The notes beneath the pieces were generated by a model. It saw only the letters and a list, made by a program, of their open reading frames with translations, was not told the origin of the DNA and ran no database searches. 47,800 bases of DNA from a virus (taxonomy: Duplodnaviria; Heunggongvirae; Uroviricota; Caudoviricetes): positions 1-47,800 of the IMG/VR virus record IMGVR_UViG_2563366820_000002. The stretch is one strand, 5' to 3'. Shown here in pieces: positions 8,120-47,371 of the stretch; position 1 is the first letter of the stretch, and each line of letters starts with the position of its first letter. Position numbers and translations under genes: made by a program.

Positions 8120-8235
8120 AATAAGACCTCAACTCTTTTCCATCCGTCACGTAATTTACGGGTGATTCGTTCAAGTAAAGATTCATTTAGTTGGAAGGCA
8201 CCCATGCGAGCGCCTCCCGCGATTGCGTAAATCAT
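8104..8235 (-). CDS. cIII: CIII (FtsH inhibitor), 43 aa
   Basis: MIYAIAGGARMGAFQLNESLLERITRKLRDGWKR... shares YAIAG and ESLLERITRKLRDGWKR with lambda CIII as I recall it; AAGGAA RBS. Confidence 0.75.
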   Translation of the reverse strand: MIYAIAGGARMGAFQLNESLLERITRKLRDGWKRVEVLLCAMK

Positions 8236-8258
8236 GGGTGGTTCCTTATGTTGGTTTA

Positions 8259-9227
8259 TTAGTAGGTTATTTTTGTTGCGAATACTTCGCCTTTTACGAT
8301 GGCTGTTATGATATTTTTAGCAACATCTTCTGATGCGCCAACCTTGATAAGGTCAGCAAGTATTTTGTTATTTACTTCTTTCCGGTGAGCTTTATCCTTT
8401 GCTCTACGCTCTTCTTCGTCCTTGATTCTTTTTTCTTCTGCTATTCTGGCTTGCTCTTTTGCTTCAGCCTCGCGCCGGATTCGTTCAGCCTCCTCCTGTG
8501 CTTTTCGGCGTTCTGCTTCAATTGCCGCATGCTTTTCTCTTTCAGCTCGTTCTGCTGCCTCTTTTGCTTCGCGCTGTGCTCGTTGCTCGGCTTCAATGCG
8601 TTCACGCTCTGCACGTTCCGCTGCGGCCTTAGCTTCTGCTTCTCGCCTTGCTGCTGCTTCAATTTCGGCTTTTGCCTTTGCTTCGGCTTCTGCTCTGGCT
8701 TTCTCTTCAGCTTCTCTTTTTAAGCGTTCTTCATGCTCTCGCTTTTCCTGCTCCGCTTTGAGTCTTGCCTCTTCTCTTTGGCGGTCAAATTCGCGATCCA
8801 TCAAAATCGCTATTTCATGGTCAGACTCAATTTGCTTTGCGAGAGCTTCAGCTGCTGCCTTAGCTTCTTCTTCGGCTTTAATCCGCGCCTGTTCTTCCTC
8901 ATAATCAGTAAGAGGCTGGCGCGCCTTGGCTTTCAGTTCATCAAGGCGATCACGCACTGTCTTGCGGTTGGCATCAATTAGCTTTGGAATTTCCTTCAGT
9001 TCAGCAACAAGGTCTTTGCCAAGACCATCGAGATATGTTTTCGTCTGCGCAACTTTATACGCCAGAGAAGCGATCTCCTTTCTGCCCTTTGCCGTTGTGA
9101 TATCAGGCACAAAGGACATAACTTCACGTTCAACCTTTTGAAGGATTTCTTCAATCTGGTCGGCAGACTGAAATACAGTCATTGCATTTGCTTTTTCAAT
9201 AACAACTAAATCTGTTACTTCACTCAT
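8259..9227 (-). CDS. Hypothetical protein with long Glu/Ala/Lys/Arg-rich predicted coiled-coil, 322 aa
   Basis: ATG at 9227 with AAGGAGG RBS; globular N- and C-terminal parts flank ~130 residues of EAKAKAE/RREAE repeats. Confidence 0.75.
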   Translation of the reverse strand: MSEVTDLVVIEKANAMTVFQSADQIEEILQKVEREVMSFVPDITTAKGRKEIASLAYKVAQTKTYLDGLGKDLVAELKEIPKLIDANRKTVRDRLDELKAKARQPLTDYEEEQARIKAEEEAKAAAEALAKQIESDHEIAILMDREFDRQREEARLKAEQEKREHEERLKREAEEKARAEAEAKAKAEIEAAARREAEAKAAAERAERERIEAEQRAQREAKEAAERAEREKHAAIEAERRKAQEEAERIRREAEAKEQARIAEEKRIKDEEERRAKDKAHRKEVNNKILADLIKVGASEDVAKNIITAIVKGEVFATKITY

Positions 9228-9261
9228 ATATCCTCCTTCGTTGTATTCTTTAAAAACGCTC

Positions 9262-9630
9262 TCAGGCGGCTTTGATAGTCATATCATCTGAATCAAATAT
9301 TCCTGATGTGTCGATATCGGTAATTCTTATTCCTTCGCTACCATCCATTGGAGGCCATCCTTCCTGACCATTTCCATCATCCCAGTCGAACTCACAAACA
9401 ACACCATATGCATTTAAGTCTTTCGAAATTGCTATAAGCAGAGCATGTTGCGCCAGCATGATTAATACAGCATTTAATACAGCGCCGTGTTTATTGAGTC
9501 GGTATTCAGAGTCTGACCAGAAATTATTAATCTGGTGAAGTTTTTCCTCTGTCATTACGTCATGGTCGATTTCAATTTCTATTGATGCTTTCCAGTCGTA
9601 ATCAATGATGTATTTTTTGATGTTTGACAT
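9262..9630 (-). CDS. Hypothetical protein, 122 aa (same length and position as lambda Ea10, unverified)
   Basis: ATG at 9630 with GAGGA RBS. Confidence 0.6.
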   Translation of the reverse strand: MSNIKKYIIDYDWKASIEIEIDHDVMTEEKLHQINNFWSDSEYRLNKHGAVLNAVLIMLAQHALLIAISKDLNAYGVVCEFDWDDGNGQEGWPPMDGSEGIRITDIDTSGIFDSDDMTIKAA

Positions 9631-9646
9631 CTATTCATATCCTCAT

Positions 9647-9675
9647 AGATAAAAATCGCCCTCACATTAGAGGGC
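9647..9675 (-). terminator. Intrinsic terminator (leftward)
   Basis: Hairpin GCCCTC-N6-GAGGGC followed on the minus strand by GATTTTTAT. Confidence 0.6.
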
Positions 9676-9792
9676 AAAGAAGATTTCCAATAATCAGAAC
9701 AAGTCGGCTCCTGTTTAGTTACGAGCGACATTGCTCCGTGTATTCACTAGTTGGAATGAATACACAGTGCAGTGTTTATTCTGTTGTTTATG

Positions 9793-9820
9793 CCAAAAAT
9801 AAAGGCCGACTATGCGGCCT
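9793..9820 (-). terminator. Intrinsic terminator after the 149-aa membrane protein gene
   Basis: Hairpin AGGCCG-N5-CGGCCT followed on the minus strand by TTTATTTTT; gene stop at 9825. Confidence 0.65.
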
Positions 9821-9824
9821 GAAA

Positions 9825-10274
9825 TCACTTAACCAATGATGCTGCATATTCGATAAGGTAAAGCTTTGGGGCCAGCCAAATTTTTAACCAAGTCATATTG
9901 GTTACTACACCAATAATAAAAATCCCCCACAGAGTCAAAACTCCAACCAATGGCATGATAAGAAGGTTAATATCTCCTTTGCTATCCCAAACCATTGTCG
10001 GCCTGTATTTGGGATTTCCCCTCTCCCATGAGTATCCTTCATCACCGATTTTACCTGTCTCAACTCTTTGGCACTGCTTCTTCATAAACCAGAAAACCAG
10101 TGGGATTGTTAGAATGGCTATTAATGTTTTAATCAGACTGTCAACCATATTCCATAGCAGCAACTGATGAACAACATCAGGAATCTGCGCTTGGCTGAAT
10201 GAAACAGCCGCGTCTATTCCATTGCTGGCTTTTTGCAGTAGTTCTACGAGAATCTTGTTTGCTTGTTCTTCCAT
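9825..10274 (-). CDS. Membrane protein, 149 aa (possible superinfection-exclusion type)
   Basis: ATG at 10274 with AGGGGA RBS; hydrophobic helices (LIAILTIPLVFWF, LLIMPLVGVLTLWGIFIIGVV); own terminator downstream. Confidence 0.7.
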   Translation of the reverse strand: MEEQANKILVELLQKASNGIDAAVSFSQAQIPDVVHQLLLWNMVDSLIKTLIAILTIPLVFWFMKKQCQRVETGKIGDEGYSWERGNPKYRPTMVWDSKGDINLLIMPLVGVLTLWGIFIIGVVTNMTWLKIWLAPKLYLIEYAASLVK

Positions 10275-10333
10275 ATATCCCCTTGATTGTAATAAGCATG
10301 AAATTATTTACGGCCAAAAAATAAAGGCCACCA

Positions 10334-10534
10334 TCAGGCAGCCTTGTTATTCTGTTTACCAAGTTCTCTGGCAATCATTGCCGTTGTTCGTATTGCCCAT
10401 TTATCGACATATTTCCCATCCTCCATTACAGGAAACATTTCTTCAGGCTTAACCATGCATTCCGATTGCAGCTTGCATCCATTGCATCGCTTGAATTGTC
10501 CACACCATTGATTTTTATCAATAGTCGTAGTCAT
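10334..10534 (-). CDS. Ral-like restriction-alleviation protein, 66 aa
   Basis: Cys-rich CGQFKRCNGCKLQSEC; same length as lambda ral and adjacent to N; assignment from memory and position. Confidence 0.5.
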   Translation of the reverse strand: MTTTIDKNQWCGQFKRCNGCKLQSECMVKPEEMFPVMEDGKYVDKWAIRTTAMIARELGKQNNKAA

Positions 10535-10604
10535 ACGGATAGTCCTGGTATTGTTCCATCACATCCTGCGGATGCTCTTCGAACTCTTCAAATTCTTCTT
10601 CCAT
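10518..10604 (-). CDS. Highly acidic 28-aa peptide ORF (MEEEFEEFEEHPQDVMEQYQDYPYDYDY)
   Basis: ATG at 10604 with GAGGTG RBS 8 nt after the N stop; overlaps the Ral-like start. Confidence 0.4.
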   Translation of the reverse strand: MEEEFEEFEEHPQDVMEQYQDYPYDYDY

Positions 10605-10612
10605 ATCTCACC

Positions 10613-10912
10613 TCAAATAAGTGGTTTGCTGCCTAATTTCATTTTCTGGCGACCAACACAAGTCACACCCATTTCACTGCGTGGCTTGCGGTAGTAAATA
10701 CGGTTCTGTTTACGCTCGACTTCTTCTGCCTTCTTGCAGCGAAGGCCTCCGAGTGATGCTGCTTTATCTGCTCTTACGCAACCAGAGAGCTTTAGCGCAA
10801 TTTTTCGCGCCAGTCTCTGCTCTTGCATTGCCTGTTCACGTTGAGCCTGCCTGCGTGCTCTGCGGCGATTTCTGGTGTTATCGTCAGCCAGATATGTAAT
10901 GACTACTGTCAT
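10613..10912 (-). CDS. N: Antitermination protein N (phage 21-like)
   Basis: Arginine-rich motif NTRNRRRARRQAQREQ near the N-terminus and C-terminus ...GVTCVGRQKMKLGSKPLI resembling lambda N ...GITCSGRQKIKGKSIPLI; GGAGG RBS. Confidence 0.8.
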   Translation of the reverse strand: MTVVITYLADDNTRNRRRARRQAQREQAMQEQRLARKIALKLSGCVRADKAASLGGLRCKKAEEVERKQNRIYYRKPRSEMGVTCVGRQKMKLGSKPLI

Positions 10913-11019
10913 GTTGACCTCCGATGATTGACTTTGGCGGTGACGCGCCGGGTGCTTATCTTCCGGTTGCCGTCGGGCAGCTGCACTTCACGTCACCCCA
11001 AAGCCAACTACTCTTTGGT

Positions 11020-11060
11020 TCCCGCATTTCGGCGGGACAATCCCATCAATGTTAAAGAGC
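11020..11060 (-). promoter_or_regulatory. nutL (boxA GCTCTTTAAC, boxB hairpin)
   Basis: Minus-strand boxA 11051-11060 followed by boxB UCCCGC-CGAAAU-GCGGGA at 11020-11037; boxB is identical to the one at nutR. Confidence 0.75.
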
Positions 11061-11104
11061 CTGCCAATCTGTTCCGTTTGGCTACCAGCGTCCTGCTGAT
11101 GGCT

Positions 11105-11195
11105 AAAGAATACTGTAGGTATTTTATTGTGTAAATACCCAAGGTATTTATTTTTGATGAAATAATGATAAACAAATGAATACAAAGGATATTTA
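11105..11195 (-). promoter_or_regulatory. pL promoter with OL operators
   Basis: Minus-strand -35 TTTACA (11130-11135), 17-bp spacer, -10 TATTCT (11107-11112); 15-bp AATAC-N5-GTATT sites at 11109-11123 and 11134-11148, weaker at 11179-11193. Confidence 0.65.
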
Positions 11196-11279
11196 TTTTT
11201 TCGGTGTCTGCTTGTTCAGTGCTTTTTATGCGGGATATGTGAAGTGGATCCCGATAGCTATTGCTGCCGGGATTATGGG

Positions 11280-11648
11280 TTAGTCAGCGAAGGTTAAGAC
11301 GAGAATTACCTTAATGATGTCTGCTACAACAGACACGGCCATAGATAAACCAAAGACGATCCAAGCCATAGAGATGTCTTCACTACCATCGTATAGAGTT
11401 CCGTAATCACTGGTGTAAGGCGTAAATGTCGCGCCTTGATACAATAGGTATAAGCTTGATCCATAGAGGATAAATGCAGATATCCCTTGTATTGCTATGA
11501 TCACCAGAATCATGAAACGAGCTGATCTATGCGCCCAAGCCTGGCTTATTTTTTCTGATAGAGATTTCGCAATAAAAGCATGCGCTAAGCCGTAAATTGT
11601 CGATATTGCCAACATCCCCAAAAAGCTTGCTATAGCGGTTCCAACCAT
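11280..11648 (-). CDS. Membrane protein, 122 aa, downstream of cI in the lambda rexAB slot
   Basis: ATG at 11648 with AAGGGG RBS 17 nt after the cI stop (track start 11669 is TTG); three predicted transmembrane helices. Confidence 0.7.
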   Translation of the reverse strand: MVGTAIASFLGMLAISTIYGLAHAFIAKSLSEKISQAWAHRSARFMILVIIAIQGISAFILYGSSLYLLYQGATFTPYTSDYGTLYDGSEDISMAWIVFGLSMAVSVVADIIKVILVLTFAD

Positions 11649-11665
11649 ATTCGCCCCTTGCGTGA

Positions 11666-12382
11666 TCAAACCAGCCTTAGTTTTGTCTCAATTGCAACGC
11701 CTATAATCTTGCAGTTTCCATTGATTGGCACGAGAGGCCATGCAGGATTAAGTCCCTTGAGGTATTTATTCCCGCCGTCGATTATCAGCTTCTTGAATGT
11801 TGCTTCGTTAGAGTCAGAAAGTTTTGCTATGACCAAGCTGCCGTTGATCGCCTCCCTTCCGGTATCGAAAAGAACGAATGTTCCCTCTGGAATGCTTAAC
11901 CCAACCGGTGCCGTCATTGAATCACCTTCCACTTTAAGCCAGAACGCATTACCTTGAATATGCGCGTCAGACTCAAGCCAAACATCTATGTCTTTAATGG
12001 TGTATGGTTCGCATGCTTCACACCACGAGCCAGCCTGGATACTGCTTAACACCGGATACCTCTTTCCTGCTCTGTATTCCCCTGCATACCTTACGTTGGC
12101 ATCGCTCTTAAGGCTTTCTGCCTGTTCTGCAACCTTGGCAGCAATTGACTGGCTAAAATCAGCAATTGAGACTTGCAACAATCGTGCAAAACCAGATGCA
12201 ACCTCAACGTTTAGCGCGTTTCTGCCATTAAGATAATGCCCTACCGCTCCTTGGGTGATACCCAGTTCATCAGCAATTGAATATTGGGTTATTCCCAATT
12301 CTTTCTTTTTTGACTCATACAAAGCCTTAAGCCGCTTAGCGTCTTCGAGCTGTTCTGTCGTCAGTGATTTTTTATTTTCCAT
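11666..12382 (-). CDS. cI: CI repressor (HTH plus S24 LexA-like autopeptidase domain)
   Basis: 238 aa; N-terminus LTTEQLEDAKRLKALYESKKKELGITQ parallels lambda CI; C-terminal domain has GDSM and FKKL catalytic motifs; divergent from cro. Confidence 0.9.
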   Translation of the reverse strand: MENKKSLTTEQLEDAKRLKALYESKKKELGITQYSIADELGITQGAVGHYLNGRNALNVEVASGFARLLQVSIADFSQSIAAKVAEQAESLKSDANVRYAGEYRAGKRYPVLSSIQAGSWCEACEPYTIKDIDVWLESDAHIQGNAFWLKVEGDSMTAPVGLSIPEGTFVLFDTGREAINGSLVIAKLSDSNEATFKKLIIDGGNKYLKGLNPAWPLVPINGNCKIIGVAIETKLRLV

Positions 12383-12388
12383 AGCTTA

Positions 12389-12459
12389 ATTCTAATAGCT
12401 AAGGTACTTAAACTAAAAATACCCTGAGTATTGATTGCTTTGAATACCTGTAGTATTCT
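12389..12459. promoter_or_regulatory. OR operators with divergent pRM and pR
   Basis: AATAC-N5-GTATT sites at 12394-12408, 12418-12432 and 12443-12457 (centres 24-25 bp apart); pR -35 TTGATT 12431-12436 and -10 TATTCT 12454-12459; pRM -10 TAGAAT on the minus strand at 12389-12394. Confidence 0.7.
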
Positions 12460-13117: not shown

Positions 13118-13963
13118 ATGACAAATACAGCAAAAATACTCAACTTCGGCAGAGGTAACTTTGCCGAACAGGAGCTAAGAGTGGCTGATATCGATGATGG
13201 TTACACCAGATTCGCTAACGAGCTGCTGGAAGCTATCGCAAGTGCCGATTTAACCGCTCGCCAGTTGAAAGTTATGCTGGCCTACGTCCGGAAAACATAT
13301 GGCTTCAATAAGAAAACAGATCGAATAGCCGATGAGCAAATTGCTCAGTTAACAGGACTGTCAAGGCAGAATGTTAACAAGGCTAAAAAAGAACTGATTT
13401 CAATGAATTGCCTGTTTATGGATGGAAATAAAATCGGTGTAAACAGGGAGGTATCTGCGTGGCAATTCAGCAAGTGTCTCCAAGTTAGCAACTTTGTCTC
13501 GAAGTTAGAGACAAAAAATGTCTCCAAATTAGAGACACTCAATGTCTCGAAGTTAGAGACACACAAAAGACATTCTTTAAAGACAAAAGAAAATATTAAT
13601 AAACCCCCTATATCCCCCAAAAAAGTTTCTCAGAAGTTCGACCCGCTAGAAACAGAGTTGCCTGATTGGTTATCAGCAGAAACATGGTTGTCGTGGGTTA
13701 CCTATCGCAAGGAGATAGGTAAGTCGATCAAGTCTAAGCAAAGTGTCACTCAGGCTATCAACGTTCTAAGCAGAAGTCTGGAGAAGGGATATACACCTGA
13801 AGAAATTATAAACCAGAGCATCGCCAGTGGTTGGCAGGGGATTTTTGAGCCCAAGACTCCAAAGGGGAAATCTCAACCGAGGCCGCAGCATCGAGCTATG
13901 CAGGAAAACTTTGCCACCAAAGATTACGGACAAACTGAAATGCCTTCATGGGCGCAGGAGTGA
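13118..13963 (+). CDS. O: Replication initiator O
   Basis: N-terminus MTNTAKILNFGRGNFAEQELRVADIDDGYTRFANELLEA... parallels lambda O; origin iterons lie inside the gene. Confidence 0.9.
   Translation: MTNTAKILNFGRGNFAEQELRVADIDDGYTRFANELLEAIASADLTARQLKVMLAYVRKTYGFNKKTDRIADEQIAQLTGLSRQNVNKAKKELISMNCLFMDGNKIGVNREVSAWQFSKCLQVSNFVSKLETKNVSKLETLNVSKLETHKRHSLKTKENINKPPISPKKVSQKFDPLETELPDWLSAETWLSWVTYRKEIGKSIKSKQSVTQAINVLSRSLEKGYTPEEIINQSIASGWQGIFEPKTPKGKSQPRPQHRAMQENFATKDYGQTEMPSWAQE
13471..13561. repeat. Replication origin iterons (four ~19-bp repeats, 24-bp period) followed by an AT-rich segment
   Basis: TGTCTCGAAGTTAGAGACA at 13495-13513 and 13543-13561, TGTCTCCAAATTAGAGACA at 13519-13537, degenerate copy near 13474-13492; AT-rich stretch to about 13610. 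Confidence 0.85.
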
Positions 13964-18451: not shown

Positions 18452-18590
18452 TGACACAACGATGGGTTAATTCGCTCGTTGTGGTAGTGAGATAAAAAGA
18501 GGCGGCGCTTACTACCGATTCCGCCTAGTTGGTCACTTCGACGTATCGTCTGGAACTCCAACCATCGCAGGCTGAGAGGTTTGTAAAATG

Positions 18591-33630: not shown

Positions 33631-34037
33631 TGGCACGTAAAGAAATCCCCTTTATCGTGGAAGACGATAATCGCGACAATGGGAAGGAGTTCATTATCAC
33701 AGAGATGTCGGCATGGGATGCCGACGAACTGGCACAGGATTTATTCCGCTCCATGGGGGAATCGGGATTCTCTGGCATTCCTGCTGATGTGATTGCCATG
33801 GGGTGTGCTGGCCTTGCCACCCTTGGTCTGAATGTTCTTTCTGCCGCATCGCCGGAAGTCGCCAGAAAACTTCGTGATCGCCTGATGTCAACTGTGCAAA
33901 TTGTGATTACACACGAAGGCAGCAGACAGGTGCGAACCGTGAAGCCTGTCGACTTTGAAGAGGTATCAACCATTCGTCAGGTAATGGATAAGGTATTTAA
34001 AGTTAATTTTGATTTTTTAACGATCGCCGGAGAGTGA
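33630..34037 (+). CDS. Tail assembly chaperone (zero-frame product)
   Basis: Acidic 135-aa protein immediately upstream of the tape measure gene; slippery heptamer near its 3' end. Confidence 0.7.
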   Translation: MARKEIPFIVEDDNRDNGKEFIITEMSAWDADELAQDLFRSMGESGFSGIPADVIAMGCAGLATLGLNVLSAASPEVARKLRDRLMSTVQIVITHEGSRQVRTVKPVDFEEVSTIRQVMDKVFKVNFDFLTIAGE

Positions 34038-34252
34038 AGTACCCGTTCATGGAAGAGGAGACTCTTCCGGCAAAACTCGTTCGCCCCGTAAACGTCACAC
34101 CATCAATGAACGCCATTATCTGTTCAGGAAAAGCCACTTATACCGATTTGCAGGAACGGTTATCTGTTCGTGATATGTATAACCTTCTGGAAATTATCTC
34201 GGTGGAATCATTTAACAAGCGGGTCTGGAATAAACATCAGGAGCAGCGATGA
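34013..34252 (+). other. Programmed -1 frameshift site and extension ORF of the tail assembly chaperone
   Basis: Zero-frame gaT TTT TTA at 34013-34019 is an X_XXY_YYZ slippery site; -1 frame stays open to 34252, overlapping the tape measure start. Confidence 0.65.
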
Positions 34253-45815: not shown

Positions 45816-45973
45816 CTAAATCAGGTTTGTCAAAAATACAATCATGCGATTGATATATGCACTAGGCAGTGGATGAATTATCCACTGCTATGGCCTCCTC
45901 AATAATGATTCTGCCGCAGGTATATTTATATTCAATGACAACGCAAATACTGTATAGTATACTTTTGTAAAGT

Positions 45974-46993
45974 ATGCAACATTCATTAGCAATGAAAAAC
46001 TGCGCAGGTAGTCATGAAATGAGAAAAATAAGTAATGTAATTTTTGATAGAGATCACACCATTGAACTAAAAGGCGTTGCTATTCTCCTTGTCATGCTTG
46101 GGCATGTAAATGTAATCCCGCACGCCGGGGCATATGGTGTTGCTCTATTCCTTATGCTGTCAGGCTTTGGCCTTGTGCAATCTTACATTAAATCAGGGTT
46201 GGATTCTTTTTTTTCAAAAAGGCTATCAAAAGTACTTGTTCCATACGCTATTATAACCATTGTTTGGATTATTGCTTTTGGACATCCAGCAATTACAAAT
46301 GATGACTTTTATCATTTAGCGATTACCATACTAGGCATTGATTTGAATGCCACTATAGATCCTAGTATGTGGTATATATCTTTTATAATAATATGGTATC
46401 TGGCTTTTTTTCTAATTTTTAGCGCTAATATCTCTATTAATATTAAAATAGCCTTCCTTTTCCTTTTTTCTGTATTGCTTTACAAAAACGCAGATATATT
46501 CCCTCCTCCAGCAGGTGCCGGACTATACGTTGCTGCATTTCCACTAGGTTCACTAATTGGAGTGGTGTATGAAAAAGTCAAAGGATATGCAATAGATAAA
46601 TGGATATTACTTTTGTTTGTCATAGTTTCTTTGGTGTCCTTAATTTTATCCCTTTATTTTTATAAAGGGATTGATGTTAGTTTTTTTGACTATGCAGCAA
46701 CAAATATAGCAAGCGCATTTCTTATAATTGGAATTACATCGATTCTTAGAGTTGCAAATATAAACATAACACCATTGAAATTTGTTGGCATACTATCTTA
46801 CGAGATGTATCTTATAGAATTCATGTTTTTGATGAAAGCATACCATTTATTATCGTTTATAAGTTCAGATGGGATAAAATCCGTCTTGTTTGTTGTAATT
46901 GTTTGTATTTTTGCATACGTATATAAATACGTACTTTCAATAGTTTTTAAAGCGCTCAGGAAGGCATTACCAAACTCAAAAATATATACTTAG
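45974..46993 (+). CDS. Acyltransferase-3 family integral membrane protein (putative surface-polysaccharide O-acetylase)
   Basis: Multi-pass hydrophobic protein with N-terminal ...RDHTIELKGVAILLVMLGH... motif; start among ATGs at 45974/45992/46019 uncertain. Confidence 0.75.
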   Translation: MQHSLAMKNCAGSHEMRKISNVIFDRDHTIELKGVAILLVMLGHVNVIPHAGAYGVALFLMLSGFGLVQSYIKSGLDSFFSKRLSKVLVPYAIITIVWIIAFGHPAITNDDFYHLAITILGIDLNATIDPSMWYISFIIIWYLAFFLIFSANISINIKIAFLFLFSVLLYKNADIFPPPAGAGLYVAAFPLGSLIGVVYEKVKGYAIDKWILLLFVIVSLVSLILSLYFYKGIDVSFFDYAATNIASAFLIIGITSILRVANINITPLKFVGILSYEMYLIEFMFLMKAYHLLSFISSDGIKSVLFVVIVCIFAYVYKYVLSIVFKALRKALPNSKIYT

Positions 46994-47371
46994 GTAGATC
47001 TATATATAGATAATGTCTACATACGGAGCAGGCTATCGTTGGATATTATGCTGGTAGCCTGTATCAATTCTACAACTCTACATGGCGAACTATCCTTAGC
47101 CAGGGATGTCATACGCATAGCGGATTATTCAAACACATCCTTAAGCACTCATGGCAGACCTTCTTTATCATCTTGTACTTGCACTGTTTCATGAATTTCA
47201 TTCATAGGAATTAACTTAACCTTTGCACCCAGAATGATTAGGAGGACACGTTTTGTTAGCTCATTAAAACCTAAGGTTTTTTCTGGTAAACCTGCAAAGG
47301 GTCTCATGATATAGACCGGTTCAGCAAAGATTCTTATCCTATTCCTTTGCTGATTTGATATAGAGCATTTA

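Follow-up and report, generated by a model that had tools for sequence, protein, structure and literature searches.

What, if anything, is encoded by the roughly 190 bp that separate an Ea10-like gene from a membrane-protein gene in a 47,800-nucleotide stretch of caudoviricete DNA (IMG/VR record IMGVR_UViG_2563366820_000002; hereafter, the window)? A preliminary description, made from the sequence alone, noted that this interval (9631-9824) has no ORF, is bounded on both sides by minus-strand intrinsic terminators and contains a perfect 9-bp inverted repeat, and suggested that it could encode a small RNA of about 100-130 nt or serve as a protein-binding or recombination site. The repeat was found as described, with arms GTGTATTCA (9738-9746) and TGAATACAC (9757-9765) spaced by 10 nt; both terminators were recovered by a terminator scan, which detected 8 terminator-like sites between 8500 and 11000 vs 2.2 expected from shuffles; and the flanking genes were correctly named, the one upstream being annotated as a TM-helix protein in Escherichia phage HF4s. 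The absence of ORFs holds for real genes, whereas mechanical ORFs of 50, 71 and 37 aa, without conservation, do overlap the interval. We consider it highly probable that the interval is the ral–ea10 region with the gene for the small RNA PreS; in this reading, PreS is probably released from the N-antiterminated pL transcript, a hairpin formed by the repeat most likely marks its 5' end, and these parts appear to be exchangeable modules.

The neighborhood is the leftward early (pL) operon of a lambdoid phage. On the minus strand, an N-like antiterminator gene is followed by Ral and its terminator, a phrog_3054 gene and its terminator, the PreS interval and Ea10 (Table 1). The order N-like, Ral, PreS, Ea10 is the same as in lambda, where ral is followed by a single terminator and then by the PreS block. 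Among complete phages, Escherichia phages HF4s and HZ41 are closest to the window over 8200-12400. The phrog_3054 gene, together with its own terminator, is flanked by GCCAAAAA(A)TAAAGGCC on both sides (9792-9807 and 10313-10329) and looks like an inserted cassette (9792-10329). Its terminator is a variant of the ral terminator, in which the 3' half GGCCTTTATTTTTGGC recurs at 10313-10329, and the block common to lambda begins in the 3' half of the terminator at 9793-9820; read as direct repeats, these terminator 3' halves are GCCAAAAATAAAGGCC (9792-9807) and GCCAAAAAATAAAGGCC (10313-10329). Elsewhere in the window, positions 18528-18562 exactly match the northern probe used for lambda 6S RNA in the preprint discussed below, the late-promoter 6S RNA region being lambda-like, and the probe for LPR2, a proposed PreS sponge, has no match anywhere in the window with up to 6 errors allowed.

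The interval is ~97% identical, almost base for base, to lambda 33905-34086, the ral–ea10 spacer, and at least 331 phage records contain it, mostly at 95-99% identity. Lambda PreS, as delimited by primers P1103/P1104 of Table S5 of the preprint, runs GAGCAATGTCGCTCGTAACT...GAGGGCGATTTTTTA over 88 nt (NC_001416 34011->33924). Judged by sequence, the minus strand of the window from 9736 to 9650 is a near-identical copy of this gene, which differs by two terminator-loop substitutions and one U fewer and in no other position; nt 1-66, including the seed and the stretches pairing with dnaN and alaS, are identical. At 87 vs 88 nt, the window copy falls within the limits (≥92% identity, ≤3 gaps) of the preprint's conservation survey. 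The tL2a terminator consists of an 8-bp stem with 5 GC pairs followed by UUUUUA, and the site homologous to 9656-9677 is annotated as tL2A in HK620. A covariance model built in this analysis (R1) has a single match in the window, at 9649-9774, with 143 bits. PreS is without an Rfam 15 family: against 9000-11200, the curated Rfam 15 covariance models, run at a permissive threshold, gave best scores of 15-18 bits vs gathering scores of 39.5-90.

Table 1. Features of the PreS region in the window, the P22-type element and the stem types of the 5'-boundary hairpin
Feature	Position	Strand	Remarks
N-like antiterminator gene	10613-10912	minus	
Ral	10334-10534	minus	own terminator 10345-10324
149-aa gene, phrog_3054	9825-10274	minus	function not assigned; TM-helix protein in HF4s annotation; absent from lambda
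Intrinsic terminator closing the upstream membrane-protein gene	9793-9820	minus	stem 9820-9803, tail TTATTTTTGG to 9793; terminator scan
Conserved RNA hairpin against PreS 5' end	9733-9770	minus	core is the repeat 9738-9765; lambda-subtype extension to 9728-9775
PreS (LPR1) sRNA, 87 nt (near-identical copy by sequence)	9650-9736	minus	5' end 9736 (GAGCAAUGUC...), 3' end in U-run ~9650
PreS internal stem-loop	9698-9715	minus	AACAGG (9715-9710) / CUUGUU (9703-9698); RNAalifold consensus and CM alignment
Seed UGUUCUGAUUAUUGGAAA	9684-9701	minus	18 nt deleted in lambda lpr1-delta-seed; identical to lambda
Intrinsic terminator tL2a (PreS 3' end)	9646-9677	minus	stem 9677-9656, tail TTTTTATCTA to 9646; terminator scan
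ea10 (DUF2528, phrog_646)	9262-9630	minus	downstream of PreS, as in lambda
P22-type PreS-like element	NC_002371 28726-28872		between gene 17 and orf87; not annotated
Lambda-type stem			GUGUAUUCAUU / AGUGAAUACAC
P22-type stem			UAUAGCAGAUU / AGUCUGCUAUG
Third stem type			AAUGCGGA / UCCGCAUU
Fourth stem type			AAUGACCA / UGGUCAUU

PreS is an already known element, described experimentally in 2024 (Silverman, Nashef, Bruner, Noy and Melamed, bioRxiv 10.1101/2024.10.31.621285; PMID 41418758 as cited in PMC12197685). According to the preprint text and supplementary files, this Hfq-bound sRNA, renamed from LPR1, lies between ea10 and ral with its 3' end at tL2a, was detected in lambda by northern blot and Hfq RIL-seq, gives bands of ~88 nt and of a stronger ~68-nt processed form, is expressed only in the lytic cycle and always occupies the sRNA position in RIL-seq chimeras (10.1101/2024.10.31.621285). 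By the same account, PreS pairs upstream of the dnaN ribosome-binding site at the dnaA-dnaN junction, opens the site and raises DnaN, represses alaS, and assists both the replication of lambda DNA and spontaneous induction, with a dependence on Hfq, favoring the switch to lytic growth; the M1 mutant alters the CUG of the seed (10.1101/2024.10.31.621285). Locus (the ral side to ea10), strand and terminator (tL2a) are the same in the window. The proposal of a small RNA was thus right in kind, a near-identical PreS ending at tL2a being established in lambda by northern blot and RIL-seq, and wrong in size, with ~87-88 nt and 68 nt in place of 100-130 nt. The preliminary description had also staked its reading on a transcript ending at the 9647-9675 terminator and on conservation of the repeat; such a transcript exists in lambda, and the hairpin is conserved in related phages.

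Two differences from lambda lie upstream of PreS, namely, the additional membrane-protein gene, which together with its terminator separates ral from the PreS block, and one loop base of the upstream hairpin (plus-strand A at 9749), which opens the loop-closing pair. The extra gene and terminator (9803-9820), as well as the shorter U-tail, could lower PreS yield or Hfq binding.

The target-pairing stretches are retained in the window copy. The dnaA-dnaN junction of E. coli was rebuilt from the Table S5 primers and searched for exact complementary stretches, given that RNAduplex on the full-length RNAs produced an over-extended, uninformative duplex; PreS nt 36-46 (9701-9691, 11 nt) and nt 51-62 (9686-9675, 12 nt) are perfect complements of this junction. 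The stretch used in alaS pairing corresponds to nt 42-56. The internal stem-loop carries a compensatory A-U to G-C change in 13 sequences and is paired in 99.4% of alignment cells. By homology, the window PreS would be expected to act as in lambda, its seed pairing, with the aid of Hfq, with the dnaN leader of the host and activating dnaN, and may pair with alaS, leading to repression; its Hfq binding, lytic expression, two RNA species and dnaN effect are all predictions carried over from lambda. From size alone, the start of the 68-nt form is estimated to lie near 9716, within the loop that belongs to the first stem of PreS.

The inverted repeat ends 2 nt upstream of PreS nt 1, that is, outside the mature RNA. 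A 9-bp perfect inverted repeat with a 3-20 nt loop arose in 29 of 3000 dinucleotide-preserving shuffles of 9631-9824, and the whole 47.8-kb window contains ~6 distinct repeats of this kind vs ~4 expected, so that such repeats are not rare and the significance of this one rests on its conservation rather than on the count. Further perfect inverted repeats, with short loops and at least 9 bp, that emerged when the chance expectation was estimated lie at 1330-1365 (12-bp arms), 13698-13722, 45866-45888, 46648-46671 and 47321-47353. A repeat finder extended the arms to 19 nt (9728-9746 / 9757-9775) with 84% complementarity. In the predicted fold, the stem is prolonged beyond the repeat, first by U·G and then by C:G, in which PreS nt 1 takes part; below a mismatched A·A, it is closed by two pairs of an invariant GC (of GCAC) with PreS nt 3-4. 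Folding, which the preliminary description had proposed as a check, gave -16.9 kcal/mol for the minus-strand RNA (z -5.0) vs -12.6 kcal/mol for the plus strand (z -2.0). The plus-strand A at 9749 (U in the RNA) replaces the loop-closing base and enlarges the loop from 4 to 6 nt at a cost of ~3 kcal/mol; in the other lambda-type (type A) sequences, where the loop retains CCAAC, C:G closes the hairpin loop.

Covariation across relatives had also been suggested as a check at the outset. Viral contigs were scanned for the conserved 5' core of PreS, which yielded more than 120 loci. At exactly the same position, these relatives carry four unrelated stem sequences (Table 1), and a wobble variant of the lambda-type stem is present as well. 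Stems of the lambda type comprise 19 pairs in a span of 21 positions, and the other three types have an 11-bp upper stem plus 3 closing pairs. In a covariance-model alignment of 79 distinct sequences, 8 of the 16 hairpin pairs were changed on both sides and 98.2% of cells were paired; for the whole structure, the observed covariation score was reached by none of 500 shuffles, with the reservation that the covariation rests on about four hairpin types, that is, on few independent events, and that this alignment is fitted to the structure. In register, pairing amounted to 94.5%, compared with 35-48% when the 3' partners were slid. A hand-corrected MAFFT alignment, used as an independent check, gave the same picture, whereas in plain MAFFT the P22-type hairpin and terminator were misaligned by one column and were therefore counted as broken by RNAalifold. 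In the stems, 162 cells are G·U and 2 are A·C, and each of the six stem variants gives the better fold in the PreS sense. Thus, the selected object is the minus-strand RNA rather than a DNA palindrome, and the repeat represents a conserved RNA hairpin that immediately adjoins the PreS 5' end. Two other roles for the hairpin were considered and rejected: for a boxB/nut-like element, the stems are far longer than boxB and the same stem type occurs in phages annotated with different N genes, and for an intrinsic terminator, a U-run after the hairpin is missing. In HK022 (NC_002166, ~26600), an annotated IS903 is inserted inside the hairpin, with loss of the 5' arm and with the PreS body and terminator intact, which amounts to a natural hairpin knock-out.

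The boundaries of homology among phages point to modular exchange. In many phages, BLAST homology breaks off where the U-run ends (9649-9651) and at the hairpin base (9770), and in P22, it ends at 9736, the PreS 5' end. Types of hairpin, body and terminator occur in mixed combinations, for example, a P22-type hairpin with the lambda body, or the lambda hairpin and seed with the P22 terminator. The gene downstream of the PreS block also varies (ea10, cIII or others), as does the ORF upstream, the stop codon of which often lies 0-3 nt before the hairpin, within CGAATAAGCAC; in lambda and in the window, the block is preceded by a terminator rather than by an ORF. Hairpin, sRNA body and terminator appear to behave as exchangeable modules among lambdoid and P22-like phages.

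P22-type phages carry what, from the order of its parts, is a diverged relative of PreS. As in PreS, a hairpin, the 5' core GAGCAAURUCGCUCGUAAC, a GUUCUGRUUA seed and a U-tailed terminator follow each other in the early-left operon. Unlike the window, the P22 element has another hairpin sequence, another terminator, two seed changes (P22 seed GACUCGUUCUGGUUAUUGG) and an 18-nt insertion, and is without the AAAUCUUCUUUG stretch. One of the seed changes, U to C, is compensated in the internal stem, which shifts from AACAGG/CUUGUU to AAUGAG/CUCGUU; this is the A-U to G-C change that 13 sequences show. Seed variants among the relatives are GUUCUGAUUAUUGG, GUUCUGGUUAUUGG, GUUCUGGUUAAUCG and CUGUUCUGGUUAGAUUG. 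Many Salmonella phages carry variants of the P22-type element at 80-87% identity. Furthermore, two viral contigs (L088 and L108) contain a PreS variant in which the seed is CUGUUCUGGUUAGAUUGAG and the lambda-type hairpin is altered by wobble changes (UGGAUACAC arm); the L088 copy is not followed by a recognizable terminator.

Beyond phages, a scan of species-representative genomes returned mostly the exact lambda sequence in unrelated taxa and chance 18-mer matches, with genuine matches in Escherichia and Shimwellia only. In a scan of genome contigs, sixteen loci at most one base from the lambda PreS region, 14 of them identical, were found in assemblies of unrelated organisms, including Pseudoxanthomonas, Shewanella, Neobacillus, Kitasatospora, Bradyrhizobium and Pseudomonas; three lie on contigs of ~48.4-48.5 kb and several others on short, low-coverage contigs. 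The lambda sequence in these unrelated assemblies looks like contamination with lambda control DNA.

How, then, is PreS made? The promoter scan detected no sigma70-like promoter on the minus strand between 8500 and 11000, and inspection by eye revealed no -10-like element shared upstream of +1 across the hairpin types, the upstream sequences being different. Given the lack of a promoter-like site and the lytic-only expression in lambda, PreS is most likely derived from the pL transcript. The independent, terminator-to-terminator transcript implied by the preliminary description gives way here to an RNA that is probably cut from the early-left transcript. We propose that PreS is released by processing from the N-antiterminated pL transcript, in which the hairpin, with PreS nt 1, 3 and 4 in its lower stem, most likely marks the 5' end of PreS or gives rise to it, and that, after the same cut, the upstream mRNA would retain a protective hairpin at its 3' end. 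The hairpin would thus probably serve in PreS 5'-end formation, in 3' protection of the upstream mRNA, or in both. The preprint text reports no end-mapping of PreS (10.1101/2024.10.31.621285), and a literature search on RNase III or processing sites in the pL operon, or with the literal sequences, returned nothing relevant.

Several known RNAs resemble this arrangement in part. CpxQ and SroC, both excised from the 3' portion of longer transcripts, and the prophage sRNA DicF of Qin are, like PreS, Hfq-type sRNAs that share the terminator of an operon transcript and are without a promoter of their own, and DicF is likewise cut from a prophage early operon. PreS differs from them in its location, with genes of an antiterminated operon on both sides instead of a place at the operon end, and, to our knowledge, a conserved hairpin abutting the 5' end is not a described feature of any of the three. 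The RNase III hairpins at sib and in the N leader of lambda are similar to the PreS hairpin in that they are conserved in pL transcripts and control RNA fate; the difference is that three of the four PreS stem types seem short for a canonical substrate of this enzyme, which would call for ~20 bp or more of largely uninterrupted double-stranded RNA.

A part for the hairpin in PreS biogenesis has to be weighed against several other explanations. The hairpin could serve the upstream gene only, as a 3' stability barrier or structured mRNA end after the stop codon, its contact with PreS being incidental. The stop codons of varying ORFs that lie immediately before the hairpin in many relatives fit such a role, but PreS nt 3-4 take part in the invariant closing pairs, the hairpin accompanies PreS irrespective of which gene lies upstream, and in lambda and the window it follows a terminator, not an ORF; we regard this explanation as rather unlikely, although worth keeping in mind. 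The hairpin might instead be an RNase III site, where a double-strand cut in the lower stem would create the PreS 5' end and destabilize or stabilize the upstream message, as at lambda sib or the N leader. The 19 pairs of the lambda-type stem approach two helical turns, the annotated PreS 5' end lies within the 3' arm of this stem, and the prophage sRNA DicF, which is released with the help of RNase III, provides a precedent; however, the P22-type and two other stems, at 11 bp plus 3 closing pairs, are short for a canonical substrate and yet occupy the same position. As a general explanation this is unlikely, and we retain RNase III as a candidate for the long lambda-type stem only.

It is also conceivable that the region is a mere spacer with tandem terminators, in which PreS is a silent relic with its transcription blocked by the added upstream terminator and gene. 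Two terminators (10324-10345 and 9803-9820) indeed precede PreS, compared with one in lambda, and the U-run is one shorter; nevertheless, the phage has the N-like antiterminator gene, the same read-through is required for Ea10 and for the early genes farther downstream, and the sequence, seed included, is kept essentially base for base in hundreds of phages with varied upstream genes, which makes a relic very improbable. The DNA-site proposal, in the form of a palindromic operator for a dimeric protein or of a recombination site, could draw on the perfect 9-bp palindrome with its 10-bp spacer and on the mosaic junctions between phages at the outer edge of the repeat. Yet four unrelated sequences interchange with pairing kept, stems are lengthened by G·U pairs, which only the minus-strand RNA can form, folding of the plus strand hardly surpasses that of shuffles, and no neighboring gene tracked the stem type in the alignments; a structure maintained while its sequence is replaced, with wobble pairs that work only in one RNA, leaves this proposal with hardly any probability. 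Finally, a small protein can be dismissed: the 50-aa mechanical ORF (9731->9579) has its AUG within PreS nt 6-8, but P22-type relatives have ATA in place of this ATG, the sequence before the ATG shows nothing like a Shine-Dalgarno motif, frame and length depend on the length of the T-run such that lambda stops after 31 codons, and the ORF crosses the terminator and overlaps ea10 out of frame.

Returning to biogenesis, a broader possibility, which we advance tentatively and at somewhat less than even confidence, is that the hairpin is a required, exchangeable biogenesis cassette, either for processing or for defining the 5' end, and that PreS is a member of a wider modular sRNA family of lambdoid and P22-like phages, in which seed variants may fit different hosts or targets.

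To conclude, the analysis of this locus rediscovered a known phage sRNA from sequence alone, which supports the ability of such a scan to flag real RNA genes, and adds no new kind of element. The preprint text and the supplementary files examined contain no mention of a hairpin, a stem-loop or phage P22 (10.1101/2024.10.31.621285), and the hairpin at the PreS boundary and the P22-type relatives therefore seem to be modest additions to that work. PreS lets lambda raise the host sliding clamp DnaN, resulting in better replication. The structure-conserved, sequence-variable hairpin at its 5' boundary offers a testable handle on the release of PreS from the antiterminated pL transcript, and the relatives in P22-like Salmonella phages, which fall below the 92% cut-off of the preprint, are natural seed and terminator variants for the study of target specificity and module exchange.
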